DNA of 60,784 nucleotides, the filler included, from Dugesia japonica (taxonomy: Eukaryota), in the NCBI GenBank assembly GCA_001938525.1. It is 6 parts of 6 records of this genome, joined end to end, with 100 filler letters (N's around TTAATTAATTAA, not from the genome) between each part and the next. Parts side by side here need not be neighbours in the genome. Positions count along the whole stretch, not along the records: positions 37,091 to 45,726 come from MQRL01623526.1; 5 more parts are not named here. One strand, 5' to 3'. How positions within the stretch are numbered: the stretch's first letter is position 1; each line of letters starts with the position of its first letter. Made by a program: the position numbers and the translations under genes. The notes under the pieces were generated by a model. That model was not told the DNA's origin and did no database searches. It worked only from the letters and a program-made list of their open reading frames with translations. Below, piece by piece: positions 11,031 through 59,968 of this stretch.

Positions 11031-11294
11031 TTCTTTAGAAATAACATCATTTGGTGGCATATCAATTATGTTCTCATCAATAATGACATCATTTGGTTGT
11101 GCATCAATCATTTTCTCGGTAATAATATTATCATTTGGTTGCGAATCGTTCATCTCTTCCTCTGTTGATGCATCTATTTCAATTATTTCTACATCATATT
11201 CTTGAAAATCATCTACTATTAAATAAATTTTTAGATCAATATTAGTTATTATTATTACCTTGATTCGATGAAGTTATATGTTCAATCATATCGT
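11031..11294 (-). CDS. Two phase-compatible exons (11259-11294, 11031-11212) of an acidic protein with 14-aa repeats
   Basis: tag|ACGAT...CAAG|gt...46-nt intron...tag|ATGAT...GAA|gtaat; reads DMIEHITSSNQDDFQEYDVEIIEIDASTEEE-MNDSQPNDNIITEK-MIDAQPNDVIIDEN-IIDMPPNDVISKE. Confidence 0.6.
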
Positions 11295-11459
11295 CTATAA
11301 TATTATACAAATGCATTACTAATCAGTTGTTAAGTTTATATCAATTCTTTGTTTATCATTAATTTTGGTTGCTTAGCATGTATTTATGATCCATACATGG
11401 ATTAATATGTATAAAAGTTTAATATTCCCACAGGAACCTTTATTATTAATATTTTAAAT

Positions 11460-13180
11460 ATATGAGTATGTTAGCTGTATAATGTATATTATATGACTAT
11501 ATTTGGTTTATTGTATCTTTTAACTAGTTATATTGATGTATTTGTATGTATTTAATGTTATTAGTGAGTGTATTATATGAAATTATTAGGTTTTTGCATG
11601 TATTATATCACTATATTATGTTAATTGTATGTATTATAAGACCCTATTAGGCTTAGTGTATGTATTAGGTTTAATATATGTATGATAATTGTTAATTGAA
11701 TGTATAATATCCCTTGGTTTTCTGTGTATAAGACTGACTTATCTTACTGTTTATGAAGCTCTATTGGAATTTTGTATCAGACTCTAATGAAATCTATGTT
11801 ATGTTTGTAAAAATTACCCATACATCTATGTTATGTTTTAAATTAATACATATACATATATACTATGTTTGAGAATATAACATAGATATTTATGTTATAT
11901 TTGTAAGTTGTGCAGATTAAATGTATTAATATGTATACGAATTAGGTTTTTCAGGAACATATAGTAAATATTTAGAAATAATTACATGACATCTGGTAAA
12001 TTTTTAAAAAATATTTAAGGAACCTTTAATAACTTTACAAAAATTATCGGCTCTCTGGTAAATTTTTGAAATAATTTAGGGACATCTATTAACTTTTTGA
12101 AAACATTACTAGATCTCTGGTAACGTTTTGAAATAATTACCGGATCTCTGATAAATCTTTTAAAATAATTACATGACATCTGATAACTTTTTATTGAAAT
12201 TTTCTGAAATTTTAAAACAATTGTTTAATAAGCTCATATAAAAGCATATAATTACTCTATAAACCTATGAATCTTATAAAATATATATAATTACCATATT
12301 TAACCCTATAAAAGCATAATGAGAATATATAAAACCATACATTTACTCTATAAAAATCTTATAATTCTTATAAAAAGCAAATTAATAACAAATAAAACCA
12401 CATAAATACCCTATAGAAACATAAAAACCCATCAATTATATAAAACTCTATTAAAACCCTATAGTTACCTTATAAAATCCTATAATAACCAAATCTTTAC
12501 CTTATAAAACCTTATAATGACTCTATAATTATCTTAGAAAACTTTATAATAACCATATAGAAACATATAATAACCTTATAAAACCCTATTAAATCATACA
12601 AAAACCAAATTAAAACATATCAACCATATAAAACTCTATTAAATTCATATAATTACCATATAATTACCATATGAAACTCTATAATTACCTTGTGAATCCA
12701 ATAGGACTATATATAACCCTATAAAAGTATATAAAAACCCTTATATTTACTTAGTAAACGAGCTTTTGTATACTTACATTCCTATTTGTAAACCTAAAAT
12801 GTGTTTGTTAATTTGCACAAGTATGATTCACGATCTTTATTCTAGTTTCACTCGTGTTGCAATGTCTTTGTTTGACTTGCATTTTGGGTGTACATGTATG
12901 ATTCATAACCTTTTTAAACATGTATTTGTGTGTATGTATTGGTTCATTGTAAGTGTATTAATTTATTATGGGATAAAAAACTTAATATAAGTTCAATAAT
13001 ATTTTATAAAACTATAAAACCCTAAAAACACTCATACAGCTATATAAAAAAGATTCATATAAAACCCATATAGATAATATTTAACCTTATAATAACCATA
13101 TAAAACTATATAAAAACCCTAAAATGACCATATAAGCCTATATAAAACTCATATAATAACCCATATAAAATTATGCAAAA
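11460..13180. repeat. Low-complexity degenerate repeat tract with strand-skew switches and central TCTGGTAAATTTTTGAAATAATT repeats
   Basis: TG-rich 11460-11950; repeats 11980-12200; CA-rich (AAACCCTATA) 12230-12750; skew alternates again to 13180. Confidence 0.55.
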
Positions 13181-13490
13181 CCAAATCATATTTCATCACT
13201 CAATTTTGCTTAGTAATCAACCATTTGCATTGTATTATGATCGTTGTTAGTATACGAGTTAAATTGTGTATGAATTTAGTTTATTATGCGCATGCTAAGA
13301 TTTTGTACATGTATTGTTCATTACGAATAATTATTGTTTTTTCAAAATGAATTTTTTTTCTTTTAAAAATGACTACAGTTAATTTCTTTTTAAATTACCA
13401 CAACGTAATATATTTTAAAAATGTGTGTCTAAAATTTCTCTGTCCATTATATTTATAGATCTAAATAAATTTGTCACTTTTGTAATAATT

Positions 13491-18164: not shown

Positions 18165-18479
18165 NNNNNNNNNNNNNNNNNNNNNNNNNNNNNNNNNNNN
18201 NNNNNNNNTTAATTAATTAANNNNNNNNNNNNNNNNNNNNNNNNNNNNNNNNNNNNNNNNNNNNATTTGTATTTTAACATACTTTATTTCTACAGTTTTA
18301 TTTACAGTATTATATATATTTAAATTTACAATTGATATGTTTGCATTTATTTTGAGCTATGGGAATTTCAATTTTTATATTTTTATTTTCTTAACTATTA
18401 CAATACGAACATTTTAAATTTGTCTTCAACAAATATTTTATTCCACATATTATAAAATTAAAAAATAAGACTTAGAATA

Positions 18480-27297: not shown

Positions 27298-27351
27298 TGG
27301 TTCGACCCGGGATCGAACCGGGGACCTTCTGCGTGTAAAGCAGNCGTAATA
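27298..27351 (-). tRNA. tRNA-Val(TAC), 3' portion (D-stem 3' side to discriminator)
   Basis: ACGnCTGCTTTACACGCAGAAGGTCCCCGGTTCGATCCCGGGTCGAACCA; anticodon TAC at 27337-27335; T-arm/B-box intact; followed by a TTTT terminator. Confidence 0.85.
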
Positions 27352-28102
27352 TTAAAAACTTATATTTAAATATAACACAAGTACAATAAATCTTTTAAAT
27401 TACACAAGATAATGGTCCAGCAAGGGACTTTTAAATAGTCTGAATGTCATCAAAAAAAGTTTTTTCTTGGCTTTTTCTTTGAATACTGGCTGTTGTATTG
27501 CATTTCTTGAATTCTAACCCTGGAATTGTTATATCTCAATTTCTGCGTTCGTTTATTTGTTGAATTTTTGTTATGAAACGTTCTTGAGACAGTGACGCAT
27601 TAATCATTTGATTCTTTGATTGTTTGTTATTGAGATTTGAGAATCACATTCTGCAATACAAAATCGAATTTCTACCTTGGTAGAATGGTAGTTAATACAC
27701 TATGCACTATTTATTCAAAGAAAGTTTTTTAACAGATGATTTTGATTAATGTTTTTATTTATTTACATATTTATATGGTAACAAGTTATTTACATATTNN
27801 NNNNNNNNNNNNNNNNNNNNNNNNNNNNNNNNNNNNNNNNNNTTAATTAATTAANNNNNNNNNNNNNNNNNNNNNNNNNNNNNNNNNNNNNNNNNNNNAT
27901 TTTATTATTTACATAGTTATCGAGTATTTACTTAGTTACCATGTATAGTCTGTATTATTTACATAGTTACGCCATTTGGAAGAATTTTTCTTTTGATTAT
28001 TGCTCTATTTTAATGGTTTAAGTAGTTTTAAAAATTCCCAGGCACGTGTTGGTGTGTTGCAATTGTGTTGCATCTGAGTTGCATGCCTATTGCATTTATT
28101 AA

Positions 28103-29567
28103 TCCTTAACCGCCCAGTAGTGTCTCAGAGACACTGTTTAAATTTCGTTTTCATAGTACATCTAAAGTTTTGAATGTATTCAAAGTAAACTTCATTTAAT
28201 TTATCACTATAGTCTTGTCAACCAAAATTACTAATTGAAGTCATTCAAATGAAATCATTACATTGGCAATTATTAAAAGGTCATAAATGTGACACAAAGA
28301 CCCAGGTCTGTCTGATAGACATAACATATAGTGTTATAAGGTTAACAGTAATAAAATAACCTTGGTGATGTAATTTAATTACACAAATAACTATAAATTT
28401 AATTTCAATAAATTCAATAAATATTGTAAAAAATGTAAGTCAAATCTTATAACTTAACATGAAATAATTTAGACATTTAGAAATTATTAATAATATGGTT
28501 GTAACTGAGAAGGAGCTGCTAATTGTATTACATGACTTAAATCATGATGATAATTCTGACAGTGGCAACCAAGATTTTATCCCAGAAGTAGAAAATGAGA
28601 TTGAAGACAATTTTACAGAGGTTGGATTAGAGAAAAGTTATGAACAGACATGCAGTGACAATGTATATTTCTCAACAGAAGAGAAACATGTTTCAAAATC
28701 AATTGTCCAATATTTAGGTAAGGACGGAACTATTTGGAATGCGAAANNNNNNNNNNNNNNNNNNNNNNNNNNNNNNNNNNNNNNNNNNNNNNNNNNGAAA
28801 AATAGTTCGTGACCCAATCGATATGTTTAATCTATTCATTGACCAAAGCTTTCTGGAAATAATAGTGAAGAAAAAATAAACGCTGTATTCCAGACAATTT
28901 TCAGCCAATTAGAGGACTGAATATTGAAACTTATATCTTTGGATTCAGAAAAGAAATGACCTTAGTTTCATATGTTCCAAAAAAGAACAGAGATGTTATT
29001 TTGTTATCTACTATCTACCATAGCAAACAATTTGACGCTAACAACAAAAATAAATCGGAAATTAATATTTATTATAATAAAACAAAAGGTGGTGTTGATA
29101 CAATGGATCAGTCAGCACATGAATACACAACTCGGCGCAAAACAAATAGATGACCAATAGCGTTTTTCCAAAATATGCTTGATATTGTTGGGAATTAGTC
29201 AGTCCTCATATTCAGAGACGAGGGAAAAAAGGGTTATCTGAGTTCCACTTGAAAGCCATGTAGGAAATTGCAAGTACAAGTCAATAGCAGTTTGAAGATT
29301 CAATCGTAAAAGAATCCACAGTAAAAAGAAAAAGGTATCACATATGCCCGTGTAAAATTGCAAAGAATTCAAAACAATGCTGCAATACATGTAATCAAAA
29401 TGTTTGTCTTGAACATTCTACAAAACAAATTCAATGCAAACAGTGTTCTTCTCTGTAATAAAAATAAATTTTATTATTTTTTGTTATAATTTAAAAGATT
29501 TTCTATGTAGTGTTTGTCAGACACTACCAGGTGGTTTTGGTACAAAAGCTTTCTGGGCGGTTAAGGA
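28103..29567 (+). mobile_element. piggyBac element, internally deleted, both ends intact
   Basis: TTAA TSDs at 28099-28102 and 29568-29571; perfect 15-bp TIR TCCTTAACCGCCCAG; YLGKDGTIW; MTLVSYVPKKNRDVILLST; YYNKTKGGVDTMDQ...RRKTNR*P; C-terminal Cys-rich domain. Confidence 0.93.
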
Positions 29568-30017
29568 TTAAAAATCATAGGCATGTGTTGCTGTATTGCA
29601 TTCATATTGCATCCCTGTTGCATTCATGATATTTATGTATTATATTTTGATATTATTGCAAGATATTGGACAGTTGAAAATTGAAATAAAATTAATTAAC
29701 ATGATAAAATATTCAAAGAGGGGAGTCTTTTTGATATTTACATGATAAAATATATCTATCAAAAAAGTTCAAAGAAGGGAGTCTTTGGGATGTTTACATG
29801 AAAAAATATTCAAATAAAAACGTTTTTTACAAGAAGATAAAAACAGATTTGTTTTTCATAAAAAGCATATTAGCTAGGTAATTGTTTATAAAAAACATAT
29901 TACTAGTGACAAATTTTTATAAAAAACATATATTTGGTGACAATTGTCTATAAAAAATGATAAAAACATGGAACTGTTTCTATACAAAATGATAAAAACA
30001 TAGAACGTTTTAACCTG

Positions 30018-30400
30018 ATATTACACAGTTAATATGTAAATAATATACTCATAAACTCTATAATACAGGCTTACTATGTAAATAATACACACAAAATCCA
30101 TATATTAAACGGTTGCTATGTAAATAATACAAGGTAAGTATACAAATAATACCCACATAAACCTTATATTACACGCTTAATATGTAAATAATATACTCAT
30201 AAACTCTATAATACAGGCTTACTATGTAAATAATACACACAAAATCCATATATTAAACGGTTGCTATGTAAATAATACAAGGTAAGTATACAAATAATAC
30301 CCACATAAACCTTATATTACACGCTTAATATGTAAATAATATACTCATAAACTCTATAATACAGGGTTACTATGTAAATAATACACACAAAATTTTATAT
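30018..30400. repeat. 148-bp tandem repeat (~2.6 copies) built from TATGTAAATAATA subunits
   Basis: AATATGTAAATAATATACTCATAAAC at 30031, 30179, 30327. Confidence 0.9.
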
Positions 30401-31249
30401 AGAAAATCGTCACCACATATAGGTTTTTTTTAAAGAATTGTCACTAGTAACATGTTTTGTTATAGGAATTTATCACTAGTAATATTTTTTTATAGAAAAC
30501 TACCTAACTAATATGTTTTTCATGAAAAAAATTTCAGTTTTTATCATATTGTTAAGAAAAGTTTTTATTTGAATATTTTATCATGTAAATATCAAAAAGA
30601 CTCCCCTCTTTGAATATTTTATCATGTAAATTAATTTTTTTAAATTTTCGACTGTCCAATATCTTGCAACAATATCAATAGGGATGCAATATGAATGCGA
30701 AACAGCAACACGTGCCTGGTAATTTATAAATGCAATAGGCATTCAATTGGGTTGCAATATGGATGCAATAGATATGGAATTAAATTGCAATAGTGATACA
30801 ACACACATTCACTACAAATCATGCGTCTGGAAATTTTTTCAATTTCCCGCCAAAAATAATTTTTTTAAATTTCCCGCCAAAAATAAAATTTTTAAATGTC
30901 CTGCCAAAAATAAATGCAATAGTTATGTAATATGAATGCAACACACCAAAACGTGCCTGGGAATTTTTAAAACTACTTAAACCATTAAAATAGAGCAATA
31001 ATCTAAAGAAAAATTCTTCCAAATAGCGTAACTATGTAAATAATACAGACTATACATGGTAACTAAGTAAATACTCGATAACTATGTAAATAATAAAATA
31101 ATTTTTAAAAATTTATATTTTATTCATTTCACATTAACATAATTATAATAATTATAATTATGATAAGAAATTAAAAAATCAATAATTTTATTGATTACTT
31201 AATTTTATATTATCATAATTGTAATTATTATAATGATGACAATATGAAT

Positions 31250-32010
31250 TAGGATTCTTAATTTCAAATGCATTTATTATATTGAAATTAAGAAAAAATC
31301 AATATCTTTATTGATTTTTTAATTTCATATGTACTTAATTGCATTTAAAATTAAAAATGGAGAATTAAAAATGAAGAATTTAAAAATGGTGAGTTTATTT
31401 CTTTTATATGTTAATTTAATGTAAATTTAGGTAAATCAAATAAAAAGTTCCATTATTGTATGATCTATTATGATTAAAGGTTCCATAGTAATATGGTCTA
31501 TAATATTTAAAGTTCCATATTAATATGGTCTATGATATATAAAGGTTCCATAGTAATATGGTCTATGATATTTAAAGGTTCCATTAATTTGGTAAAAAGT
31601 GTGTTAAAGATGTCTAATATGTGCTAAATAATATAAAAAATGTCATGTATTGAATAAGTAACAGTTGACTTGGAATTTCTTGCCATTTTGCGGATATAAG
31701 TCAAGTCAATTATTGACGATGATGATTGATTGTTTTTAAAACCATTGTAATGGTGTTCAATTTATGTCCGAATGTGAACGAATAGAAACACTGTTACCGG
31801 AGATGCACATACTGTAATCCAGCTTAGCCTAGTTAAAACTACGCAAGTTAATCTATAAGTTAAATTATGAATGGACTCGAATTGGATGCTAAAGACCTTG
31901 ATGGATTCGCTCCGTCAGACTGTACATGTCGGAAGAGATAATCTAATGGTTTTGAAGGAAAACAAGACTGTTACTGAAACAGTGCATGAAAATAATTCTT
32001 AATAATTTAT
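31250..32010 (+). repeat. Dispersed module (hairpin + 33-bp repeats + decayed ORF-like segment), copy 1
   Basis: Colinear with 39700-40440; AAAGGTTCCATAGTAATATGGTCTATGATATTT repeats. Confidence 0.8.
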
Positions 32011-34048
32011 TTCAACTAATTAATATATGAAAAATTAATTAATGTCATATTCTTTAAAATTTCTTTGACTTAAATACCTATAAGCATATGTATTTAGACT
32101 GCCCATACCATGCATAAATATAAAGACTGCGCATTACATGCATAAATATCTTGTAATAATATCTTACATAATATCAAGATTGCCCGATATCTTGTAATAA
32201 TACGAGTTTCAATAGTTTACAATTAAAAATATTCAAGCATTGACATTTGATGAGGTTATCAATGAAAAACAAGTTCTAGAAAGTATTTCAGAGAATCTAA
32301 ATTGTTTTGCTTTATTTCATAATAGTGATGACAAAGAAGTGATTCACCTATTAGAAGGGAAAAGATTTAGAGGGGCTCCAACTAATAAATAAACATAGAC
32401 ACCATCCCGTTACAAGTGCTGGCAAAGTTGAACTAGCTGTGCAATTTCAGCGTGAATTAAACATAATTATGTCACATAATGAATAATCATATAAAGAACT
32501 AAAAAAATTAAATCACAGCATCTGATAACTGATTTGGTATTTAAAACCAATGAAACCAAAGAAACAGAAAATGAAAGTTGTATCCAAGCTATATTTTAAA
32601 AAACATCGCCAATAATATTTTCCAGTGACGAAAGTGAGCGTTCGTCACAAAAAGTAACAAAGAACGGACACGTTAATTATCAAGTTTTGATACTGAATGA
32701 CTAAATAATTATGTTATATGATATGCAATATAAAATATATTTATTAAATAATATATACTTTAAAAATTAAGGTTTGTCTATTGTTTACCAAATCACATTG
32801 AAACTTATCTACCATTTTTATATGAAAACGTCATCTTTTTTTGCACTGTTGTTTTTGGAACGCATCCACCGTGTAAATGAGAATTAGGTATATATATATA
32901 TATATATACATTTGGCTGCCGATTCCACAAATTAAATTAAGGTGCGTCTACAAAATAGACGTAATAATCGTTTACCCAACTTTTAAAATCTTCGTCAACA
33001 ATAACATCAAATCGAAAGTCCACAAAATTTTATTCGAATATTGAAAATATAAACTTTTTCAAAAATGAGTCTTCGACCAAACTTGGAGAATTTTTACAAA
33101 ATTTACATTCATTTATATAGTCATTATACACACTAAATTCAAATACACAAAGACAAGAAATCCAATAAAATGTTTTATCAAATCACAATCTATCCAAAAA
33201 CATCTTGCACTCATGAATCTACCAATGTCACATTGACAAATAAAAAATTTTCAAGATAATTTTTGTACTAGTAAATTTGCCAATAAAAATGATTTAGCGA
33301 TGCTAATTTCCCATTGGTCGCACGTCAACTCTCTCTGTAGAGTAACAAAAAGGGTTCAGGATCTAATCGGCAAAAATTTACATTGACTCTATTTTCTAAT
33401 ATAATTGTTAGAAGCCCTCGTTTACTTTAACTACGAAATTTTTAATATATTTTACTAAGTAATCAAGTTAGTATTTAATCAATTAAAGTTTTAGTAATAT
33501 TTATTCCTCTACGAATCATTTATGTGAATGGCTTCTCATCATTTGAAATGATCCGAGAATTTGTAATTACAGGTCTATTTTCATCTATCGTCATTATTCA
33601 TCATTGTATTAAATGTGTACAAATTACATGAATGTTTTGTCACTTTTCAAGTTTAATTATATATTATTATTACTACTAAAATTTTACAACTTAGATTATC
33701 ACTTGGGATATTCAATATTCATTCATAGATTTTGCCGAAATATTGAACTCTCTATGAAAATAGAAAAACATCGTTTTTGATCTTTGCAATTGAAAATAAA
33801 TTTTTTTTATTAAACTTGTTTTCCAAAATATTTGATTAATAAATAACTTTACACTATCGACAAGATTTTTCTACTAATTACTGATATGTATAATTGAGCC
33901 TTTATTTGGGTCCCTCCAGGTAAGTAGCTATCTTTGTGCTTTGTTTTATAATCACTAATTAATTTGTATTTTATTATATATATAGTAAGATCCAGTTAAC
34001 ATGTGGTAGTCCAGTAAAGTTAAGTAAAATGAATTTTGTAGAAAAAAA

Positions 34049-35986: not shown

Positions 35987-37385
35987 CTAAGCAACAATGA
36001 AAACATTAAATATGTATTAACATATTCATTAATGTAACAATAATTTTGTCAAAATAAAATCAACTGAAGATAAAATATCTGTTTTGTTAAAATCTTTTAT
36101 TTGGTCATAATTTTCTGTTATATTAATGTTATTTATGAGAATTTATACATACTGGTTTAACCTTTAAATGCATGATTTTTTGAAATTCATTAAACAAAAT
36201 GTTTATTAGAAAATTTATTATTCATACAAACAATAGACAAAAGATTGATTTTATTTTTATTTTCACTTCAATTCATAGACGGACTCTTAAAATAATCATA
36301 AATAATTATACTTAAATATTTCGTATGATAGAAATTTCTATAACGATTCATCTAAGGATTAAAATCAACCAAGAAAAATGCCAACCATATTTTGTTTTAA
36401 ATTATTCGGTATTTTAAATATTTTTCATAGTTTCTATGATTCTCGTCTATTTTTCAGTGTTTTTATTTTATTTTCAGAAAAGATAATATGACTGTTATAT
36501 GAGTTTGGAGAACTCATCGAAGAATTGAATTTACTTCCAAATAATATTTATTCACAAAACCAAAACTATGAATATAAATTTGTTTTATTTTCAAACAAAT
36601 TAAAAAATTTATTTTCGAAACGAAAAATAAAAAATATCAGCCTTTTATTACATTAATTCAGTTTATTTTAGATTTTAATAAATAACGTAAAATTTAAAAA
36701 TACAATAAAAAATATATTTTGTTGAAAATCAGAAATTTAGTAGTTTTACAAATCACAACAAAATTATAAAAATTAAAAATTCTAAAATTTTAATATACAT
36801 TGCGAAAAAATTTTGAATTCAACACAAATTATAAATTTCATAAAAACAAAAATTTTAAAATTCATTTGCTTTTAACGGTTAATTTTAAATTTTATTTTAC
36901 GAATTATTTTAATGATTCAACTTAAATATTTAAAAAATCCGATTTTATATAAATTCTGTTTCAAAATACAAAAAATCTAAATCTGCTTTTNNNNNNNNNN
37001 NNNNNNNNNNNNNNNNNNNNNNNNNNNNNNNNNNTTAATTAATTAANNNNNNNNNNNNNNNNNNNNNNNNNNNNNNNNNNNNNNNNNNNNTGCACACCCG
37101 ACTGTGTCGGGTTTGCAAAGTTTAATCTGATGGTTGCCATGGAGAAGCATTTTATTCAAATGCAGAATTATGACTATTATTTTTGATACTATTGATTGTA
37201 TGTTAAAAATAAATGTATTATTATTTAGTCTTTCTTTTATTTAATTTTTTTTTAGTTTTTTATTTATTGTATTTAGAAATGTTTTTTATAATATAAAATT
37301 AATTTAAATGAAATTAACATTTTTTTCATAAAAATTTATTTCATTAAAAAATAACACAAAGTAAACATTAGGTTTGATAACAAAT

Positions 37386-37843
37386 TTAATTTTTCTTTTC
37401 GATGTTTTTGATTTTCCATTTAACTCCTACCGAATTAATTGATTTCTTGAAGCCTTTAATCTCCACTTGAATCATATATTGACTGTCGTCTTCATATTGG
37501 TTTTCATTTCTTTTTTTAAAGGCTATATAAATAGACTCGTTGACTTCAATTTGACGGCTTAATCTAGCGAACATACCCTTTTGTATATTTCTATCCTTCT
37601 CATGAATTCCAGATAGAAGTAGACTAAATTTGGATCATTTTATTGAAACTTGTTTCTAAAATAAAATATTAATTTATAAAATGAAATAAAAAATAAATAC
37701 TTTGAAGTCTTAGATAATCGGAGTCTTCAAAAAGAACAACTTGTAATTGTGGAAATCAGTAATTTTCTCTAGTTCCACAGTTATTGTTGGCACGTTTTCC
37801 TTAGTTAGTTGGTTTTCTTGAATTTTTGAATTGTAAAAGTCAT
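37386..37843 (-). pseudogene. Two-exon decayed gene, possible OB-fold ssDNA-binding (DUF2738-like) protein
   Basis: 45-nt GT-AG intron 37656-37700, phase 0; YKLFFLKTPII*DFK|KQVSIK*SKFSLLLSG...YMIQVEIKGFKKSINSVGVKWKIKNIEK; one frameshift and two stops. Confidence 0.5.
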
Positions 37844-38064
37844 TAATTGTATGAAAAGCTTTACTTTTGTACTAATTGCGATACACATCTACTCGTTATT
37901 TGCGAGTTCCTATTGGTTAGTGTTTACTTAAATTTATATTATGTTAATATTTCTTTGAATTGTTGCGATTAGCTAATGTTTGCTAAAATTGAAATGATTG
38001 GATAATATTTGTTTTGATTGGTTACCGGGTTTAAATGTTTAAAAATAATTTCTCTTTTACAAAA
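37844..38064. promoter_or_regulatory. Putative bidirectional promoter with CCAAT boxes
   Basis: 220 bp between divergent ATGs; ATTGG at 37912, 37997, 38017. Confidence 0.35.
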
Positions 38065-38578
38065 ATGTCTTTTAACTATTTGGAAAGTTATTTTGAAAAT
38101 CTCGATCAAAGCAGAAGAGTTCTTGGAAATATTGATAACCAGGAAAGATTAGAAAAAATAATTGAAGCCATTGATAACGGAACCATGATTATTAATGACG
38201 AACAGATAGAAGACACAGTTTATAACGAAAATATGGCAGATGCATTATGCATACCCTGACGAAGAAGACGATGCTGTTCATTTTGAAAATATAGACAAAA
38301 GTATGAACATTATTATGGTAAGAGTTTAATTTATTATTATTTTATTTAATTTTCTTTTTTAGATTTAGCGTTGGAGATATTAAATGAAAGGTTTCCAGAA
38401 TTTCTTCATGAATATATATATGCTGTTGACATTGGATGAATATTTTGATCATATTTTGCAGACAACAGCAATTGACATGAATCTAATTATGAACAAATTC
38501 ATCTTGGAACTTCAATCGGCTTTCCGTGACAATGTAAACAAGACCCATTATGACATCTTGAAGGAAAAAATATTTTGA
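38065..38578 (+). pseudogene. Two-exon decayed acidic helical protein gene of unknown function
   Basis: MSFNYLESYFENLDQ...; 45-nt intron 38318-38362 (GTAAG...TTTTAG); KYEHYY|DLALEILNERFPEF...LTLDEYFDHIL...KEKIF*; frameshifts. Confidence 0.5.
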
Positions 38579-39699
38579 AGATAACTGAAAACTTGAAAAA
38601 TTAAATGTTATTTTAATAAATGTTTTATTGGATAATTGTTTCCTTTTATTTATTATTTTTTATAATAAATAAATTAATAAGGTATTTTTTAAATAGTAAA
38701 TTAATAAGTTTTTTTTAGTAATAAAATAATAAATGTTTCTTATTGTAAATAGTTTTTTATTAATGAATCTAATATGTATGCAATAGGGATGCAACACAGC
38801 ATCACATGCATTGGATTTTAATGAATGCAATTGATATGCAATAGGTATGCAACACAGCAGCACGTGCCAGGGAATTTTAAATTTATGCAACAGGCATGCT
38901 ATAGGATTGTAACACAACGAAAATTTCCGCATTTATGGAATATTTTTAAAAGGTATCCTCGATAAATGATTTTTTTAAGAAAAAAATCTATACTTTTATC
39001 ATTTTCCTAGTAAAGGTTTCCTTATCATAAGTGACTGATGAATAAAGTTTTAAAATTTATATTATATTATTATTACCATAATTATTATTGTGAGAAAAAG
39101 TTAATTAGAATCAAAGTTGATTTTGAATTGAAGAATGTTTTAAATTATAAATGCTTAAGTTTTCAGAGTAGTTGTTTTAATAATATAAAAATTACCGTGA
39201 AAACTGATTAGCTAAATTTTAAAGAAAATAGAAGCAAATAAATTGAAAGTATTATTATTATTATTATTTGGAATTAGAGATCTTACTAATGTTCTTGAAA
39301 TATTATTATTGTGTTTATCATTTACTATCTGAATTGAAAATTCTATTATTGTGCAATTATCATGGATATTTGGATTGGAGATTATATTTTTGTTGTGATT
39401 AACATTCATTACTTGGATTGGAAGTTCTATTATTGTTTAACCTTGTTGGAAACGCAATTGTGATTGTTAATTAATTTATTTATTAAATTGTTGAGTGTAA
39501 ATAATATTTGAATTTAATATTATTAATAATTATAATTATTTGCTTCTAAATTGTTAATATTATTTATTGCTAATTATAATTAACTTCACCTCCTTATTAT
39601 TCTGTGTCTTTACCACACTTGCTAAGCAACATAATTGGTAACTACATACAACATGTTAAGGGAATCTGTAGCAACTGACAATAATAATTACAATACTGA

Positions 39700-40440
39700 T
39701 AATTATGGTAATATGAATTAGTATTTTTAATTTAAAATACATTTATGATACTATGAAATTAAAAAATTAATAAATATATTAATTAATAAATATATAAATT
39801 TTTAATTTCATAACACTATAATTGTTTTTGAAATTAAAAATGGTAGGATTATTTTTTTTTCTATGTTAAATTTTTTTAATGTTAACTTAATATAAATATA
39901 CATTTTATATATAAATTTAGGTAAATTTTATTTAAAGGTTCCATAATAATATGGTCTAGGATGTTTAAAGGCTCCATTAATATGGTCAATGATATTTAAA
40001 GATTCCATTGACATGGTAAAAAATGTGTCGAAGATGTCTAATATGAGCTAAATAATATCAAATATTACATGTATTGAAAAAGTATTAGTTGCGTTGGAAT
40101 TGATTACCATTTTGTGGATCTGAGTCTAGTCAATCATTGACGATGATGAATGATTGTTTTTAAACAATTAAGCGTGGTTCTATTTATGTCCGAATCTGAA
40201 CGAATAGAAACACTGCTACCGGATATGCACTTACCGAAAATTGAGCTTAGCCTAGTTTGAGCTTCGCAAGCTGGTTGATAAGTTCAATTATGAACGGACT
40301 CATCCGTGTGCTATCTGATCTAAATAGATTCGTTCTGTTGGACTGTTGTATGGTGGAGGAGGTAATGTAATGGTATGGAAGGAAAACAAAACTGCTACTG
40401 AAAAAATGCATGAAAATAATTATAATTAATTTAAACTAAC
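39700..40440 (+). repeat. Dispersed module, copy 2 (homologous to 31250-32010)
   Basis: Shared ATGTCCGAATxTGAACGAATAGAAACACTG, AGCTTAGCCTAGTT and GCATGAAAATAATT. Confidence 0.8.
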
Positions 40441-41419
40441 TAATTAATAAATTAAGTAAATAATTTAAAATGATACAGGAAAACTTTTTAAATTTCCCGC
40501 AAAAGTATCAAGACTGCCCTCATCGTCTGCAAAGTATCAAGACTGCACCAATATTTTTTATTAAAGAATGCAATAGACATGAAATATGAATGCAATACAG
40601 CAACACGTGCCTGGGAAATTTTTTACTGCCCCAATCTCTTACAAAAAATATCAAGACTGTCCCGTCCTCTGCACAAATACCAAGTCTGTTAAAAATTGAT
40701 TTTTTTTACATAAAACATCATTTTAAACAAGTTAATCATTTTTAATTATAACCAATTGTCTAAAAATGATTACATCACACTCACCCCACAAAAAAATTTC
40801 AATTAAATCTTATAATCCCCGATAATTAATTCTTTTTCAAACCATTTACCTTTCCCCTTCCCAAAAATTTTTTAAAACACACTTATACTACTTACAAACA
40901 TTAACCAGTAAAATTTAACCACAAAAATCAGAAATCAAAGCATAATCGACAACCACCATCCTCCCCATCAAATCAATTTTCAAAAAATCTATCATCCACC
41001 AAAATATAACAACTACCAACAAGCCTTCACCCTCCCAAAAATTACTCCACGATAACTCATACGCCTGTGTCCGCGCGCTACCTATCTTCTAGGTTGAACC
41101 ATTCATCCTACTACATAAGTCCTTTAGACAATGTATAGACAGAATTTTACTCCTAACACAATCATATCATAAAAATGATTTTCTTGATCTCCACATCAAA
41201 AAAATCAATTGAGTCCAATTTCACTCTTACACACACACCATTTCAACTGGACCTACTTTAAATTAACACACAAAAATTTTAAAAAAATCTGATTCAGATC
41301 AAAAATATCTGATCCAGATAAAAATTCATTTGATCAAAACTATTTTGATCCTAAAAGTCTTAGAAAAAACAAGCGCAAAAATACCAGCGTTAATTTATTT
41401 GGGTCGAATTAGACTTTTT

Positions 41420-42433
41420 TGAGATGGATTATAATTATATTATTAGATATATTATGTGTTGACTTAAAATTTTACTGGGTGAATTCAATATCTGAAACGA
41501 GAAATGATGTATGGTTTTTTATAAATGGATCAAAAACTGAATATCCGGATATGAATGATACTTTGTTATCTATACAGATTTTAGTTGTTGATAAATTTGG
41601 AAAAGAATTGAGTGAGAAGTCTGATGTAGCACCGAGCAACTTTGTTTCATATTCTGTTTAAAGATTATATCTTTTCATTTAACAATATCAAAATAGAAGG
41701 AGGGAATGAAACATATATTCTAAAGACTATGATCAAAACCAAGATATCTTATTCCAGGTGTTAGTGTTTAAATTCAAATAAAAATGAGCAACGAATAGAA
41801 TGGGATTAGAAACTGCAACTGAGAAACCAAAATTATTTATTACTTGATGCAAAATTTATGGTTAGACGTGTTCGAGTACTTACAGGCCATCAAATAGGTC
41901 TTGGTAAGCAAAATGCTGTTTATCGAATAAGAACCAATGAAATTGTAGCTTTTGCAATCAGTAAGACTGTACAACATTTTATGAGAAGCAAATCTTTGGA
42001 GATCGTCAATTGCTCAATTTTTTGTTGGTAACATTTCAAAGCAGAGACCGATATAATGGAAGCTATATCAAGCTCAAATTTTGATAAATTTAATGTCATA
42101 TCTATAACTTCATCAAAGAACAACGATTATCGCGAAGCATATAGTCAAGACTTTGAAAGTTATAATTACAGCACATCATAAATATAATCAGTAGTTAGAA
42201 ACATGGGATATCTAAACAAGAAGATGAATTGTGGAATAACACTTCAGAAATTCAGAAACAAACATCCATTTTTTAAATTTGTACTTGCTCCAGATTTTTA
42301 AATTAATCAGTAAGGAAATAAGAGATTAGATATAAAATTCGAAAGTGTTTTGACTACACCAGCATATGTAATAATTTATGGAGTATTTGAAAATGAAATC
42401 CAAATTACATCCAAAATACTAATATTAGTTTAA
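41420..42433 (+). pseudogene. Polinton/adintovirus double-jelly-roll major capsid protein (hexon/PY) relic
   Basis: FFINGSKTEYPDMNDTLL...DVAPSNF..HILFKD; DAKFMVRRVRV...NAVYRIRTNEIVAFAI; CGITLQKFRNKHPFFKFVLAPDF; GNKRLDIKF...VIIYGVFENEIQI; internally deleted and frameshifted. Confidence 0.82.
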
Positions 42434-42529
42434 ACAATGTCGTTGTCTAGAGTTTTCAACATGAAGTAAGATTTAACAAAAATATATAAATTTATTTAAT
42501 TAGTTCAATTCAGATTAATAAATTTGGAA

Positions 42530-42870
42530 AATAATTGCTTGGGTTTTATAATTACAATTATTGTGAGAATAATTGTGGGATTAATCCATTGATCGGATTT
42601 GAGATTTCATTAAAATAAAGAAAAAGATTCAATGAAAAATGTATTTTTAAAGAAATTTAAATTTGCCACACTNTTATTTAATTAGTTCAATTCAGATTAA
42701 TAAATTTGGAACATAATTGCTTGAATTTTATAATTACAATTATTGTGAGAATAATTATGGGATTAATCCATTGATCGCATTTGAGATTTCATTAAAATAA
42801 AAAGATTCAATGAAAAGTGTATTTTTAAAGAAATTTAAATTTGCCACACTTGTCTTCTTCAGAAATGATG
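42530..42870 (-). repeat. Hammerhead-motif-bearing short repeat, minus-strand copy with local tandem duplication
   Basis: Reverse complement TTTCTGAAGAAGACAAG at 42865-42849; tail GATCAATGGATTAATCCCACAATTATTCTCACAATAATTGTAATTATAAAA matches 54139-54190. Confidence 0.6.
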
Positions 42871-42999
42871 ACTTTTTGATAGAATCAATAGGACAATCGA
42901 TCTTTGCTACAAAATTCTTTATCTTTTATCGAAATTTTATTGGTTTATTTAAAGTATAATTTTTTAAAGTATAATTTTTATTAAGATTAAAAAATTATA

Positions 43000-45290
43000 A
43001 TATTAATTATTTTAATTGCTAAAAATCTTTGTCAACCCACAAAAACATCACAACTTGGCTCTAACTGATTCAATGCCCTAAATTCTGGCTCGGTCATAGG
43101 TAATTCAAATAATAATATCAAATTATTGGATGTTCTAAATGAACTACGTGCTATATTAACAAGCTCACTAATCCCAGTTTAACTGTAATAACTCTTATTC
43201 TAACTTGAATAAAACTAGAAATTTAACTTCAGATTATGTTCGTAAAATGGATTCGGATTCATTTTTAAATTTTAAATCTGCTATTTGTTCTGAACCCTTA
43301 GAAAACCCATATATTTAGTCAAGAAAATTAATTCCCAACAATCTACTTCACTTAAANTCAAGCAAATTAATTCCCAACAATCTACTTCACTTAAACACCA
43401 TTGACTTGTTAAATTAATTTAATAACATCAGTAATACTTTAAAAATCACAAATTCAATTCACAGCAACTTCGTGTGTAACGATTCAAATCCCCTCAATAC
43501 CAGCAATCCTTCTTCTAAAATATACGAAACCTTTCCATCTGATATTTTAGAACCCATAACTATTATGAACAACCAAAATAATCAAGCTATTACTGTTAAT
43601 TTAGTCTTAAATAAAAAGCACAATTTTTGCAACAGAAATTATTTAATATTTCTATTTGCTTAGCAACATTCAAAATTGAGTAATTTAAACAAATTCAAAA
43701 AGACTATGTAAATTGTAATTTTAACTCTAATAATGCTAATAAGATTAATCAATTTTAAAGGCAACGTCATTTCTAATACTGAAATACATGACACTAATCC
43801 TGATTTTTCTTGTCAATCTGCTAACGTTAATAAGAAGCCTTGCTTCTACCATCGAAAATTTAATGACAAAGATCGCCATTGCAATAAGCTATGTGGATTC
43901 AATAATACTCCTGCTCTCCAATCAGCTTAACGCACTGTCACTATCTCTAATAAGCTTTCTGATCTTCCACACAACCTTCAAGTAAAGGTATCAACAATGA
44001 TGACGAAGATTTCGATAAAGTTGGTGGAATTTGGAACCCGATGTACTCCACTCAAATGTCTACTTCCCTCCTGAACTCTTATCTATCTATTGATAAAAGC
44101 CTCATCGTAATCAAAGATCGCTTTCCTTTATTGGCTGATCTGCTCTGGAAATGGTGTACTGAATCGACTATAGAATATTTGGTTTCCTTGAGAAGAGATA
44201 GGTTTTTTACTGTGATTTGGCTTCTAGCTTCTCGAAACTACTCAACAGTTATTTTTTGCTTGCCAATCAATTCTCGAGATTTCTCGACATCTTAGCTGAG
44301 ACAATCACTCACTTTGATCTCTCGGGAAACTCTTTATTTGATAACATTCTTAGAATCAGAAATGGCCCCAACGGTGCTAGACCACCAGGCACGTCGATGA
44401 AGATTTCTGCTCCACCTAAAATGGCGCCTACTATTTCAATTGCTGCTTATAAAAATGTGTTTCAAAAATCCTCATTTCGTGAAGTTCTAAAATTCTCAAA
44501 CACTCATAGTAACGAATTACTAAAAACACGCATAGTACCAGTCGATCTCTACGCGCTCTCCTAAAACAAGCTGACTGATAGAAAAATGTCCAACTCCATT
44601 TACTCTATCGGGACATCTATGATGCTTATAGATCGATACTCATTAAACACATCTCTGGCATTCTCAACAGAAATGGAGTCAATAGCAACTCTAAAATTCT
44701 CATTGAATCTCTATCACAGCTGTCATTCAAAATATATCAGCGACAACATCTCCACCTCCTTCATTGAATTTCGACAAGGATGCCCGCTTTCAATGCTTCT
44801 ATTTAACTTTGGCTTAAACTCTATCTTGGATGCTGTCACTCTTCACTCGACACGGGAAAATTCTATCAATGGTTTCCACATAACTGCTCTAGTATATGCA
44901 GATGATTTAGTTCTGCTAGCTAAAAGTACAACTGACCTACAATATATGGCTGATACAGCCCACTATTGAACTCAATGGAGTAGCCTAAAATTCAATAAAA
45001 AAATGTGGTTATCAATCATTACACAACAAACAACTGGTTCAAACCATCAGCTTCGCCGAAAATTATATTTATATTGGTGTTACTGTCAGCAACAATATGA
45101 AGCAATCTCCGTACAATGTTTTCCATAAACTCATCTTAGATTTTGACAGAAAATATCTAATTGACTCTCCTATCATGGCAAAGGATAACTGCTTACAAGA
45201 TAATTCTCGTCTCACTTTCCGTTTAAAGAACTACAATCTTCTCAATCATCATATATATAAAAGCTTTGTTTTAAGTTGGGTTAAGAATAG
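43000..45290 (+). mobile_element. Non-LTR retrotransposon (R2/NeSL/CRE-like) RT pseudogene
   Basis: RQGCPLSMLLFNFGLNSIL; ALVYADDLVLLA; WSSLKFNKK; upstream CFYHRKFNDKDRHCNKLC Cys/His motif. Confidence 0.8.
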
Positions 45291-45726
45291 ATAGATAGTG
45301 GCGCACGTAAGCACCTGTGTGCGAATCCCCCCGCCGTGAAGTAACGAAACGTAACATAATCCTAATGTATTTAGTTGACGATTTGAAATTGCACACTTAT
45401 TAAGTAATATTACATAAGTGGCTACAAATTTTCCTGTGTATTTAGTTGGGAAAATTATTTGCTCACAAATTATGTCATCAGATTTATTTCATCGTCGAGA
45501 ATTTTACGTAATAGGATTAAGTGGCTATCAATTTTTCCTGTGTATTTAGTTGGGAATATTTTTCAAGCTTATTAGACGGCAAAGTGGTGTTACTTTTTTC
45601 CTGTGTATTTAGTTAAGAAAATTTTTTAGGCTTTTTAAACAGTATTATTTTCTAGGCTTTTTAGTTGGGAATTTGCTCCGTGAGGTCGATGAGGTTGAAT
45701 TTTGATTGGTTTTAAGTGGTTTTTGT
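45290..45726 (-). repeat. Inverted copy of the 13850-14230 repeat family with terminal hairpin
   Basis: CCTGTGTATTTAGTTGGG repeats; CGCACGTAAGCACCTGTGTGCG imperfect hairpin next to TAGATAGTGGC. Confidence 0.75.
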
Positions 45727-48359
45727 NNNNNNNNNNNNNNNNNNNNNNNNNNNNNNNNNNNNNNNNNNNNTTAATTAATTAANNNNNNNNNNNNNNNNNN
45801 NNNNNNNNNNNNNNNNNNNNNNNNNNAAATCGGCTTCGCATTCGACTTGTTGGCCACCCTGAAGTATTACAATGGGGTATTTATCATCATTATTCCAGCG
45901 ATTAAATTCTATTGAGAAATTTTGCAAAGAGATAATCTAAATTTAATAGCATAAAAGCTATTACCAAAAAGCACTAAACGAAATTTTATCCCGCAACAAT
46001 GGTTAAAATTAGGTGGTATCATCAGCCAAAATTAGAATTTTGATTGTAAAATTAAAAGTTTATCATTGTTATTAACTTATTGTAAATTCGAATTAATTAT
46101 AGTGTATTATTTTAAAATTAATTTCCTTTAAGGGGAATGTCAACATCACAGTGTGTTTTTCATTAGGTTTATTACTATAATAAATTTGTTACCATTGGAC
46201 TTAGAATAAAAAGTTACCTATACATTGCCTAAAGGGCTACTATCAAAAAATTTTTTATTCTTGATATAATATATAATGATAATAGTTATATATAATGATA
46301 ATATTTGATACCATTCGACTCAGAATTGAAAACTGCCTATACATTGCTTAAAGGACTACTACCTAAAAATGCTCCGTTTGTGAAGAAAAATGAGTTTGTT
46401 TATAGTAGATAGATATGGGCGTACGGGGACCGCACTACAAAGACAAAGTCATTAATTTGACTTAATTGAAACAAAAGTCAATATAACCACTTAATTTAAA
46501 CAAAAATTATTAATTGCGTTTTATTTAAACAAAAAAAGAAATAAAGTCATCGGCACGCATTATAAATAATTCGGCCACTTACGTAATCGGTACACCAAAT
46601 TTTAGACCACTCCAATTCTAGAACAGTAAAAAAATCTTGGAGGGCTGGATCTGTGCGCTACTATCTATCTACCAAATCCTTATCTTCACTCTATTTTTTA
46701 AAAAAGTTAAAATTGATATTAGTCTTTATAACTCGAGCGTTCCGACTAATTCATATACATACAGCCGCATGAAAATGAGAAAGCTCGTAGCCGAGCTATT
46801 TTTTAATTTTCAACAAAAACAATCAGTTGAATTATGTTAAGTATTCCCATAAAATTACGAATATATGAAACCAAAAATAGTGATTCACAATATTTCGAGC
46901 TCTAACCCCATATACTGAAATATATAAAGAAAAACAAAAATCCCGCAAACAATCAAAAAGTTACAGAATCCCGGTCTTAAGAACCAAACTCATCAAAATA
47001 TAGCAGTGATTAAAGCTACGGGATATAGAGCAGAAAATTCGTATTTTTATATTTGGCTTAAATTTTTATCAATGTTCATTATGATAATGCGTTAAATTGA
47101 GGCTGTTTTCTATAATTTTTGTGTTCATTTTATATATATTATATTTTATATATTATATGTATATAAATGTGTAAAACAACGATGGAAAATGTTTAATAAA
47201 AAATAAATAACGCCATCACACCCATTAAATTTAAATTGATAAACAAGTTTGGAACACAAACCAATTGATGTATGGGATTTATTAACAAATCTATTAATAA
47301 TCTTATTCAATTCTGAAAGCTGCTAAGGATCTTCCTTTATTGAAAATTGTTTCTACTTCATGTGATATTGTTAATAGCTTTGGTAATAAATCCTATACAC
47401 ATATTGGTTTGTGTTCTAACCTTGTTTATCAATTTTAAAAAAATGTGTGTGATACCACATACATTGGAGAGACTGCCCGTCATCTCTGTACAAGGGTTCA
47501 AGAGCATAATCGTTTTGGTGGTGGTAGTAAAATTGCTGAGCATTAAAATAAAAATAAAAATAAATGTAAGAAATTTAAAAATTATTGGGAGTGTTGTATG
47601 AGGCGTTAATGATTAGATTTCATAATCCAAGCATTTATGTACAGACGGCTCTTTCGACAAAGTTGATTAGAATTTTTTAGATATCAAAAATTTTTGAATT
47701 TTTATAAATTTTCTTATTTTTTAAAGATTTTTTTCAGTTTTGTATTTTATATTTTCAAAATAATTTTAATTTTATAATTTTGCTTTTAAAAAATTTAATT
47801 CATTATAAAAGTGAAACATTTTTTAAAATATTTGAAAAACGTTTTTTGTTTTTTCGATTTTTATAGGTTTTTAATTTGTAATTTTGAAAACTATTATTAT
47901 AGAAAAAAATTTTATTAGAATATAAAATAAATTTTTTGAAAAATTTTTTAAAATTTAAAAATTACGAATTATGTTTATAGCCATCTTATATTCAGTATAA
48001 TTGCTTGAATCTTTGTTTAAATAATATAGACTGAATAGACTCTTTTTTAAATTTTTGTATGATGATGACGGTTGATCCGTTAAAATATGTAACAATAAAA
48101 TAATTTTTAATAATAGTAAAAAAATTCCATAATTAATAAAAATATTTAATTAAACGTTTGAATGCCCACAAAGTAAAATNNNNNNNNNNNNNNNNNNNNN
48201 NNNNNNNNNNNNNNNNNNNNNNNNNNNNNNNNNNNNNNNNNNNNNNNNNNNNNNNNNNNNNNNNNNNNNNNNNNNNNNNNNNNNNNNNNNNNNNNNNNNN
48301 NNNNNNNTTTCAAAAGTTATTACTACTATAAACATAAATCTTGAATAAATTAAAAAAGC

Positions 48360-56878: not shown

Positions 56879-59800
56879 AGAACAGTACCTAAAAATTTAT
56901 CCACAATGTTTTATACTCCTCCTAATTTAAAATCAATCAGTCAATTGCAAAGAGATAATGAATTGGAAAATCCTAAGTGGATTGTTTTTCCTCCCGTCTT
57001 ACAAAGTGCTACTCAATTACGACAAGGAAAACGGCATCTTGTTCATAATAAAAATATGGAAAATGCCATAACTATTGATGATGAATTAAAAAAGGTTTAT
57101 TTGCTATCTTTACTTACATTTTTACATATAAAATATTTAGACACTTATTGACAGAATTAGTGCCTGTTTAGTTAGTGTTAGCATGAAAAATGGTGCTAGT
57201 AAGTTTACATAATTACGTAATTTAAGNNNNNNNNNNNNNNNNNNNNNNNNNNNNNNNNNNNNNNNNNNNNNNNNNNAAAAAATCAATATCAATGAACTTT
57301 AAATAAAATAGAATTTAAAAGTTGTAGTGATTTGAAACAGATCAATTTCAACACTATCAATTTTAATATTCAATCACAACATATTAGGGTTTTATTTAAC
57401 TTACGCCGTGTTTTGAACAAATACACATTTTTACTACATCCACAATAAATAAATTAGTCAAAATATTTTCCTTCACTTTTTTATACTTAAAATCATTTTC
57501 TGGNAAAAGCCGGATTCCTTTTGCGATAAAACGACTTGTTCTTGGAACTAATACACTCAGCAATCCATTTTTGTATCTCTTTGTAATTAGGTAATTGTGT
57601 ATCTCCCAAAGCATATTGCTTTGATATGAAAGGGTAGTATTCGGAAGGGTCAAATCTTTGGAGTAGGTTGGGTAGAACTTCCCAGCCAAATTCCAACGTT
57701 TCTTTTACACACTTTGTGACATGTGGATGAGCATTGTCTTGCAGCAGAATTACTGACTATTGTAGATCGTTTTTGTTTGGTTTTCGTATTCAATTTAATT
57801 AACTATTGTTTGTATCGATTTCCTGTGATGGTTTCATTTGATGATAAAAGCTTGTAATATAACACCTTTATTCCTCCAAATTGGTTTGTTTCCGTGAATA
57901 TTACGTTTGATCTATTATGCTATTTAACTTAGTGTAACAAAATTTAGTAGATCATATTTAGAACATTCAAACGCGGTAAACGGTTAACCTGTTAATGTTA
58001 AAACTTTCGAAAAAATAATAAAAAGGAAAATAATCTTATTAGTGACGGACAAATAAAGAAGCGGATATTTGTAACTTTCAAATATTTACTATCCATCAAA
58101 CAAACAGGTGTAGAATGAGATAGAGCTTTTTCGGCTGCCGGTAAAATCATTACTAAAATCAGATCAAGTTTCAACGACGCAACATTAAATTTTATCTGCT
58201 TTTAACGAGCATACTTTTATGATAATTTAAAATGATAAAAGAAAATTGAGTTCATTAAGTTACTTTTATTTATAATTTTTAGTATATTTTACTTAAAATA
58301 ATGAACTAAATTATTTTTGTATAAAAAATCTATTTTTTTTAAAAGAAATTTCATACGAATTATTATTACAGGTATCCCTCGTATAACACGTTACTCTTAC
58401 AACATGTTTTCGATCCAACGCGATTTAAAAATTGAGGATTATCTGGCTTAACGCCGACTTTTATAATGCGGTTTCAGTACAACGCGAAATTATAACTTAC
58501 ATAACCCGAATTTAATAAACTATTTTTTCTAAGGATATAATAAAAGGAAGTATATATTTATGCTTGTTTTTTAAAAATTTTTTTTAATAAAGTTTTAATT
58601 ATAATTTTGACTTGAAATATACATGTATAATTTATTATTTTATTTAGGAAAAAATTATTTCAACATAACCTTCTACTTTATATGAAAGCTGAGTCTTACA
58701 TATTGAGGAATTTTTCTAGAACATAACCTCCTTTTTTTACGAAGGATACCTGTATTTTGTTTTCAGTAAAAAATTCCACAAAAAGTAATTGTTTTAAATT
58801 TTAGCTGTTAAAAATTAAAAAAAAATCCGGCATTTATCGATTAACCGTTTACCGGTAAATAAAATTTTCGGTAAATTTGCATGCCTTAATCATGTTTATT
58901 TGTGATTAATTTTGTTGTCACAATAAAAATGCTCAATGAAAAAAGAGGTGAAATTATCTATAACATCGTAATTAAAAAAAATAACGGTTAAGAGGTGACN
59001 NATAATTTAAAATTCTTAAAACTTCTAACATCTAACGGTAAGTGTATATTTTATTACCAAACGATTATTTCATAAATTCTAGCAAATATTCTTCATAACA
59101 TTATTTTAACGACATTTTATTGAAGAACAACATTCGAAATTGCCATACTGAAATGAAAGTGCTTTTCATATTGATTATGTAAGTACTAAAATCTCCTGTT
59201 TTCAAGGATTTCCCCAAGAAGTTAATGAAATTTTAACGGGGTTTGCTGCTACATCACATTTTAATTTATTCAGTTAATTACATTTTATTTTTATTCATTT
59301 ATCTTTATTGTCAGTAATGAAAATAAACTTGTTGATCGAGAATAATCTTACATTTTTCATTACATCACTAAAGCAATTGGTTTTATATTTTTAATCGTTG
59401 CGCTCTGCATCTCATACTAAGCTTAAAGAAATCGTTTAATCATTAGGAAATATAAATAAAATTTTATCTATTTAACTATGATTTTATTTATTTTAAAATT
59501 TTAAGAATCACTCGATACAGTTTTACAATACACGGATATAACTCCTATTGAGTTAGTTTATGAAATTCGAAATTCTAAAACATTTAATCGTCCCTCAATT
59601 TGCTATAAGGCTTTTGATACAGCAACTGATCAATTTGTGTTACTTCGTCGTTTTCCTGGCTTTATACTTCAATCAGCCAAAGATTCTCAACTAATTGAAA
59701 GATTTCGCAAAATTAAACATCCAGGATTGATTTCAATTAGTAATGTGTTCGTAACAGAAGCTTTTGATGATAATTGTAAGTTGGGAAATTAAATTCCTAA

Positions 59801-59968
59801 TGTGTTTGATTTATTATTTTTTTCATTAAGCAACTGTTTTTATTATGGAATATTGTCCATGTAGTGTTACTGCTTTACAAACACATGTTAGTGATGTAGG
59901 GAAATTAATTGGATTTGCATCTCCATTTAATATTACCCAACAAGCTCGGCCATACAGTTCATCAAAAA
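56879..59968 (+). CDS. PAN3: PAN3 poly(A) nuclease regulatory pseudokinase subunit; exons 56879-57094, 57141-57198, 59506-59775, 59831-59968; gene continues beyond
   Basis: All GT-AG and phase-compatible; IDDELKK|TLIDR...; SICYKAFDTATDQFVLLRRFPGFIL...KIKHPGLISISNVFVTEAFDDN|STVFIMEY...ARPYS parallels PAN3 CYKA..LRRIHGFRL..KKIQHSNIVTLREVFTTKAF. Confidence 0.9.
57490..57900 (-). mobile_element. mariner (Mos1-like) transposase C-terminal fragment in a PAN3 intron
   Basis: LYYKLLSSNETITGNRYKQ; LLQDNAHPH; FGWEVLP; YSKDL; EIQKWIAECISSKNKSFYRK. Confidence 0.85.
57970..58888 (+). mobile_element. hAT element remnant (dimerisation domain) in a PAN3 intron
   Basis: KYLLSIKQTGVE*DRAFSAAGKIITKIRSSFNDATLNFICF*RAYF; subterminal CGGTAAACGGTTAA / TTAACCGTTTACCG inverted motifs. 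Confidence 0.75.
58369..58752. mobile_element. pogo/Tigger-like MITE nested in the hAT remnant
   Basis: TA|CAGGTATCCCTCGT ... ACGAAGGATACCTG|TA. Confidence 0.85.

Follow-up and report, generated by a model that had tools for sequence, protein, structure and literature searches.

Intact vertebrate Mavericks are described as intronless in the accessible sections of PMC8097293. For nematode Mavericks, the available part of bioRxiv 10.1101/2022.07.12.499685 reports intronless core genes beside intron-bearing cargo, which was read as host-derived. Most introners of dinoflagellate maverick-polinton-like proviruses are young; the portion of PMC11957031 at hand describes them as insertions of transposons that make introns. 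Here we describe a degraded Maverick/Polinton locus of Dugesia japonica. It lies on an 8.6 kb record (MQRL01623526.1, positions 37091-45726) of the window, by which we mean the whole 60,784 nt of DNA analysed, six records joined. The record carries a major capsid relic, the start of a protease and two divergent genes, A and B. [quoted passage not shown] Among titles and abstract starts, none pointed to splicing of a Maverick protease or to an SSB in Mavericks; Repbase, supplements and subscription papers may record either. Two aspects appear to be new: the membership of gene A in a Maverick accessory family with a predicted SSB fold, and a predicted intron in codon 2 of the protease that is common to related Mavericks.

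Our data suggest that the record preserves the left part and the capsid part of a single element, which belonged to a Maverick lineage with introns and has lost its middle. We give this reading a probability of roughly 0.55. The present copy is dead; the locus, a dead mosaic, indicates that a known class of elements has a real variant. The original prediction, made from sequence alone, had seen the divergent genes, the motifs, the C/A-skewed block and the capsid on one contig, and they do share the record.

We observed that the capsid relic covers residues 29-123 and 164-406 of its closest protein in shifting frames; the first 28 residues and residues ~124-163 are missing. The relic has 44 homologous proteins, mostly of ~406 aa. 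The model of this closest, intact relative (P0002; predicted local distance difference test, pLDDT, 86.7) matched the double-jelly-roll capsids of iridovirus, Paramecium bursaria chlorella virus 1 (PBCV-1) and virophage (E 3e-16). Pfam gave no family above the cut-off for the relic itself. A capsid scan of viral contigs returned nine stretches, none related, and a scan of metagenome contigs returned 54 related loci. The longer loci showed the order ATPase-integrase-minor capsid-core-capsid-protease with the polymerase on the opposite strand, all within 14 kb, which is the order of a Maverick/Polinton. Their minor capsid, core, protease and polymerase are presumably what motif, size and order make them; the ATPase and integrase were named by Pfam (PF04665 and PF00665). 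The double-jelly-roll relic of the original prediction was thus borne out, with canonical Mavericks as its intact relatives, and the capsid and protease are almost certainly of Maverick origin.

The protease ATG lies 28 nt past the capsid stop. It is followed by two bases and then by a 38-nt GT-AG segment inside codon 2. The ~13 codons after this segment were the best of 121,480 six-frame positions against a matrix of the protease N-terminus, and another repeat cuts in beyond them. A full-length protease profile gave no match in the window, where only the first ~15 codons remain. Positions 42491-42866 hold a 182-nt tandem duplication containing the protease start, together with a very high-copy dispersed repeat.

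The same junction was tested in 32 of the 54 related loci; the other 22 had a capsid match that stopped short of the C-terminus or were not among the loci listed for it. Six of the 32 were too short and two lacked the motif, leaving 24 scored loci. We observed a GT-AG segment of 37-47 nt following ATG plus two nucleotides, in the same phase, in 15 of these 24 (~11 lineages). The remaining nine had a plain in-frame Met there, no insert and a gap ~45 nt shorter. On a capsid tree, all 15 intron loci fell into one clade (Shimodaira-Hasegawa-like approximate likelihood ratio test, SH-aLRT, 100), which also holds the window relic and a single member that lacks the intron. This was a quick tree from which L043 and short loci were left out, and the relic filled 25% of its columns. 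Two changes suffice on it, which we read as one gain and one loss. The proteases of L008 and L043 are intronless; L008 lies inside the intron-bearing clade and is likely a precise intron loss. Capsids within this clade share only about 50-60% identity. One contig, with a depth of 107, tracks the window to 42502, through the protease start, so sister copies carry this start. Judged from these alignments, it is highly probable that the codon-2 intron is real, and its splicing is predicted.

Gene A was tied to Mavericks through two related loci, L003 and L020, which also encode ATPase, integrase, both capsids, protease and polymerase. Each has a small gene left of a TBP-like gene, and its reciprocal best match is gene A exon 2. 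A tblastn search of the related loci had missed gene A. A profile search seeded by the L003 and L020 proteins returned 78 proteins. The test profile comprised 77 of these and the two seeds, with gene A excluded, and was scored on 940 open reading frames (ORFs) of the window. Exon 2 ranked first (E 3.7e-8, profile positions 63-152; 29.3 bits vs. a best of 14.6 over 2000 shuffles) and exon 1 ranked second (E 2.6e-4). Because the exons are collinear and abut at profile positions 55/56, the 45 nt between them are a clean insertion. The L003 homolog has its own 43-nt intron at a different position, and the L020 homolog is oriented away from the capsid, like gene A. There is little doubt, as far as profile comparison can tell, that gene A belongs to a Maverick accessory family.

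The protein model of the L020 homolog (core pLDDT ~80, mean 63) had T7 gp2.5, Enc34 SSB, DUF2815 and African swine fever virus (ASFV) CP312R as its top four matches (Z 8.1-7.2; next 5.6). The best match (Z 8.1, root-mean-square deviation (rmsd) 2.7, 107 aligned) indicates an oligonucleotide/oligosaccharide-binding (OB) fold of the gp2.5/Enc34 type on the homolog; counting against it, the model was built on a two-row alignment and a Z near 8 can reflect a common arrangement. An acidic C-terminal tail is a feature of gp2.5. No such tail was found in L003, L020 or gene A, each of which ends a few residues past the last strand. Pfam gave no family above the cut-off for gene A or for the SSB family, and PDB sequence searches gave nothing useful. 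Protein atlas matches of the L020 protein were all <0.9 and serve as leads only; the SSB alignment was too variable for a locus scan. The predicted fold suggests, with fairly good odds, that the family binds single-stranded DNA. Taken together, the profile match and the L020 fold suggest that gene A is likely a spliced, viral-type single-stranded DNA-binding protein gene. The coordinates of all features are collected below.

Table 1. Features of the Dugesia japonica Maverick locus, in window positions.
Feature	Position	Strand	Remarks
Gene A exon 2	37386-37655	-	One in-frame stop; predicted OB-fold SSB, Maverick accessory family
Gene A intron (predicted), 45 nt, GT-AG	37656-37700	-	Sequence pattern; exons abut in profile
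Gene A exon 1	37701-37870 (end approximate)	-	One in-frame stop; profile positions 17-51
Short region between genes A and B; CCAAT boxes at 37912, 37997 and 38017	37871-38064		Shuffle test
Gene B, acidic, frameshifted	38065-38578	+	Predicted 45-nt intron at 38318-38362; multi-copy
Two copies of repeated module	38748-38881		Not a hairpin
High-copy block, 31-33-nt tandem units	39681-40468		Second copy 31212-32042 at 74%
TTTCCCGC motif and further module copy	40493-40622		Sequence
C/A-skewed block	40700-41330	+	Multi-copy; relatives transcribed from + strand
Maverick major capsid relic (double jelly roll)	41467-42433	+	Many stops and frameshifts
Maverick protease start	42461-42542	+	Exon 42461-42465 (5 nt), predicted intron 42466-42503 (38 nt), then ~13 codons

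Genes A and B form a divergent pair with a 45-nt intron each, as first proposed, and both are broken in the present copy by stops or frameshifts. When both strands of the whole window were searched with a strict pattern for AT-rich GT-AG introns of 43-47 nt, the introns of genes A and B were the only two matches. Block shuffles of the region gave a mean of 0.06 sites, and two sites were reached in 0 of 300. The three CCAAT boxes between the genes, also part of the original prediction, exceeded a shuffle mean of 0.35 (P 0.005), and the region likely served as a two-way promoter. The comparison made there with a 46-nt host intron fell away: the intron at 59776-59830, in a gene that we take to be PAN3 (Pfam gave no family), measures 55 nt.

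We also assessed RNA reads and copy number. Six RNA runs were used, at 6-26% of each, and nearly all reads came from relatives of <95% identity. Reads from relatives of gene A showed the strand bias that a minus-strand transcript would give in all three runs from a single study (15.2 vs. 1.5, 5.0 vs. 0.5 and 10.5 vs. 2.2), near absent in two other runs and weakly reversed in one. By DNA contigs, every part of the locus was multi-copy.

Several results weigh against the reading of a single intron-bearing element. The RNA check proposed for the junctions brought no support: among the joints listed, none crossed either 45-nt intron (438 further joints lay beyond the list), nor did splicing of the protease intron show up. 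In run X9, ~11 reads from relatives spanned the gene A intron site with no joint listed. A direct homolog search for gene A gave 14 candidates, none of which scored; gene A is only ~22% identical to L003, whereas the capsid has a neighbour at 77%. Just two of the 54 loci yielded the SSB gene, although most loci are too short to reach that part. Gene B was not tied to Mavericks in searches of the related loci. Pfam and 42 family profiles gave gene B no family either, and its best protein atlas match (0.77) was uninformative. Tblastn and the 42 profiles did not find the ATPase, integrase, minor capsid, core, exonuclease-like or TBP-like genes in the record or elsewhere in the window, and the modules, the high-copy block at 39681-40468 and the C/A block showed no family and no Maverick link in related loci and profiles. 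The idea of a virus-derived element with host-type mini-introns thus holds for gene A, whose homologs lie in two Mavericks, and for the protease; it finds no support in gene B, the modules or the C/A block. Finally, summed contig depth, a poor measure of copy number, drops between the parts at 38016-38194, 39090-39626 and 41238-41416. The only long contig across the junction of C/A block and capsid has depth 5.5 and 0 differences, and therefore represents the present locus alone. This junction is real and is bridged only at single-copy depth.

Further core genes were sought in the same way. The protein-primed family B polymerase was not found in the capsid record by tblastn or the 42 profiles, and integrase, ATPase and minor capsid had no match anywhere in the window. 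A Maverick polymerase relic lies at 6998-8098 on the minus strand of the first record, not on the capsid record. No terminal inverted repeat was found in the capsid record, although only 300 nt separate gene A from the start of the record, which may be truncated.

The repeats between the two ends of the locus bear on how the parts came together. The 15-nt module core occurs five times in the window vs. 0 in shuffles, with two copies in 37386-42433, and there are four TTTCCCGC motifs vs. 0.38 expected. The foldback motifs of the original prediction were thus real as repeated modules and failed as hairpins: all six segments folded no better than shuffles (z -0.2 to +1.5). Long inverted arms were not found in the capsid record and are present only on another record, at 27899-31099. 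The stretch at 27.9-32.2 kb shares the modules and an 841-column block at 74% with 37386-42433, beside a large inverted repeat; because modules and block recur together there, they form one repeat family. Comparison of the block at 39681-40468 with its second copy showed no codon-position signal. The 10-nt core of the module 15-mer was found in none of the 54 related Maverick loci. Thirteen viral contigs that match the 15-mer were set aside as chance (54-73% GC, no further similarity). The composition of the C/A block was confirmed (C 0.247, G 0.054). It had no Pfam or profile family, and 316 candidates among longer proteins yielded none that scored. Composition and strand suggest that it is probably an inserted retroelement piece.

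The palindrome at 27899-31099 is large and imperfect. It has a tandem core of 148 nt, contains copies of the module as well as a 27-nt TTTCCCGC tandem, and is interrupted by a piggyBac-type relic at ~28105-29570. It could be a non-autonomous Maverick-related satellite. A broken gene-like block on the plus strand (32213-32700) follows the second copy of the 74% block and had no match among related loci.

Such a satellite is central to the closest competing explanation, in which two Maverick-related pieces became nested or adjacent. One would be a helper-dependent, repeat-rich satellite, to which the SSB gene and gene B belong together with the modules and the high-copy block; the other would be a fragment with capsid and protease from an autonomous family. 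The gene identities would stand and only the single element would fall. The depth troughs and the single-copy junction fit this arrangement, as do the association of the modules and 74% block with a large inverted repeat at 27.9-32.2 kb, away from any capsid or gene A, and the 5' truncation of the capsid, which no core gene precedes. However, summed depth gauges copy number poorly, and SSB homologs lie 5-6 kb left of the capsid within autonomous Mavericks of the same capsid clade as the relic, so that a simple internal deletion suffices to explain the order. We prefer a single element that lost its middle, and regard the two-piece origin as a serious but less probable alternative.

We consider it improbable that gene A derives from some other DNA virus or was domesticated by the host, that gene B belongs to the host or to a transposon, and that chance placed the capsid fragment nearby in a region dense with repeats. 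Gene A is only distantly related to L003 and L020, similar folds occur in many giant viruses, and the same record holds other repeats and a piece of reverse transcriptase from a long interspersed nuclear element (LINE). Yet the only two family members of known context are both in Mavericks, gene A is multi-copy and broken, and no further copy was found on the other records of the window. The LINE reverse transcriptase relic spans 43963-45294.

Least probable is the giant, hairpin-rich, continuous Polinton-like element of the original prediction, of which 9.5-13.4 and 27.9-32.2 kb would hold additional pieces: the modules and 74% block are common to 27.9-32.2 kb and the TTTCCCGC motifs exceed expectation, but the pieces lie on separate records, no hairpins form, 9.5-13.7 kb has no blastn match, the capsid is cut 5', core genes other than capsid and protease start are missing, and relatives with the same capsid have ordinary Maverick gene order within 14 kb. 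Of the related pieces it had named, only 27.9-32.2 kb was shared; both are on other joined records, and their position is therefore uninformative.

The rest of the window and the related loci gave further observations. Artificial 100-nt spacers (N runs flanking a 12-nt linker) lie at 9453-9552, 18165-18264, 27799-27898, 36991-37090 and 45727-45826, and base composition is ~25% GC and animal-like. The record at 9553-13400 contains many 31-62-nt tandem arrays and a short acidic ORF (11013-11273), with no similarity to 37386-42433, and 27300-27350 resembles the end of a tRNA gene. Related Mavericks carry a dual-specificity phosphatase (L017, 663-1260), a ubiquitin-conjugating enzyme (L020, 225-722) and a TBP-like gene (L003, 2160-2618); the phosphatase has a predicted 46-nt intron. 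Two tandem minor-capsid-like genes, named by motif, occur in L021 (1423-3475) and L020 (5610-7684).

In an intact ancestor, host RNA polymerase II would have used the CCAAT region between genes A and B to transcribe both, and the host spliceosome would have removed the AT-rich introns of 38-47 nt. Since the start codon lies on an exon of 5 nt, only spliced RNA would have yielded the virion-maturation protease. The SSB would have coated the displaced strand during protein-primed strand-displacement replication, a model that draws on the accessible parts of bioRxiv 10.1101/2021.03.25.437074 and PMC11886824 on protein-primed replicons. Tentatively, a whole invertebrate Maverick clade may depend on the spliceosome for virion maturation, with the codon-2 intron gained once and kept, accessory mini-introns still arising and a gp2.5-type SSB encoded. 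The codon-2 intron could act as a switch between resident-transposon and virion-making states.

The value of these results is in the lineage indicated, not in the dead locus itself. Because Mavericks are annotated as intron-free ORF sets, standard pipelines would overlook spliced accessory genes and a start codon that lies on a 5-nt exon, or would begin such genes at the wrong place. The shared intron position argues for long residence in the host nucleus and selection on the spliced product. The protease intron would provide a simple RNA marker of virion-module expression, which bears on whether animal Mavericks make virions, and the SSB would fill a gap in the Maverick replication toolkit.

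The L020 homolog shares its predicted OB fold with T7 gp2.5, Enc34 SSB, DUF2815 and ASFV CP312R (PDB 1je5, 5odk, 4klk and 8hw5) over 103-129 residues (rmsd 2.6-3.8), at 6-12% identity. Animal Mavericks/Polintons (adintoviruses) have the same double-jelly-roll capsid in the accessible text of PMC8097293 and PMC8502044, followed by an adenain-type protease, of which the present record probably keeps the start. Like the relatives of the relic, they have ATPase, integrase, minor capsid and polymerase, and the genomic copies described there are mostly degraded, as here. In contrast to vertebrate Mavericks, the present lineage has predicted introns in the protease and accessory genes; most core genes and the element ends were not found in the record. 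In nematode Mavericks, too, a variable region to the left of the integrase holds spliced genes, in the portion of that work available; here a core gene is predicted to be spliced, and gene A has a predicted viral-type fold. Dinoflagellate proviruses, as far as the text at hand describes them, also have spliceosomal introns inside Maverick-like elements. Whereas those introners are mostly young insertions, here one intron position is common to a divergent clade.

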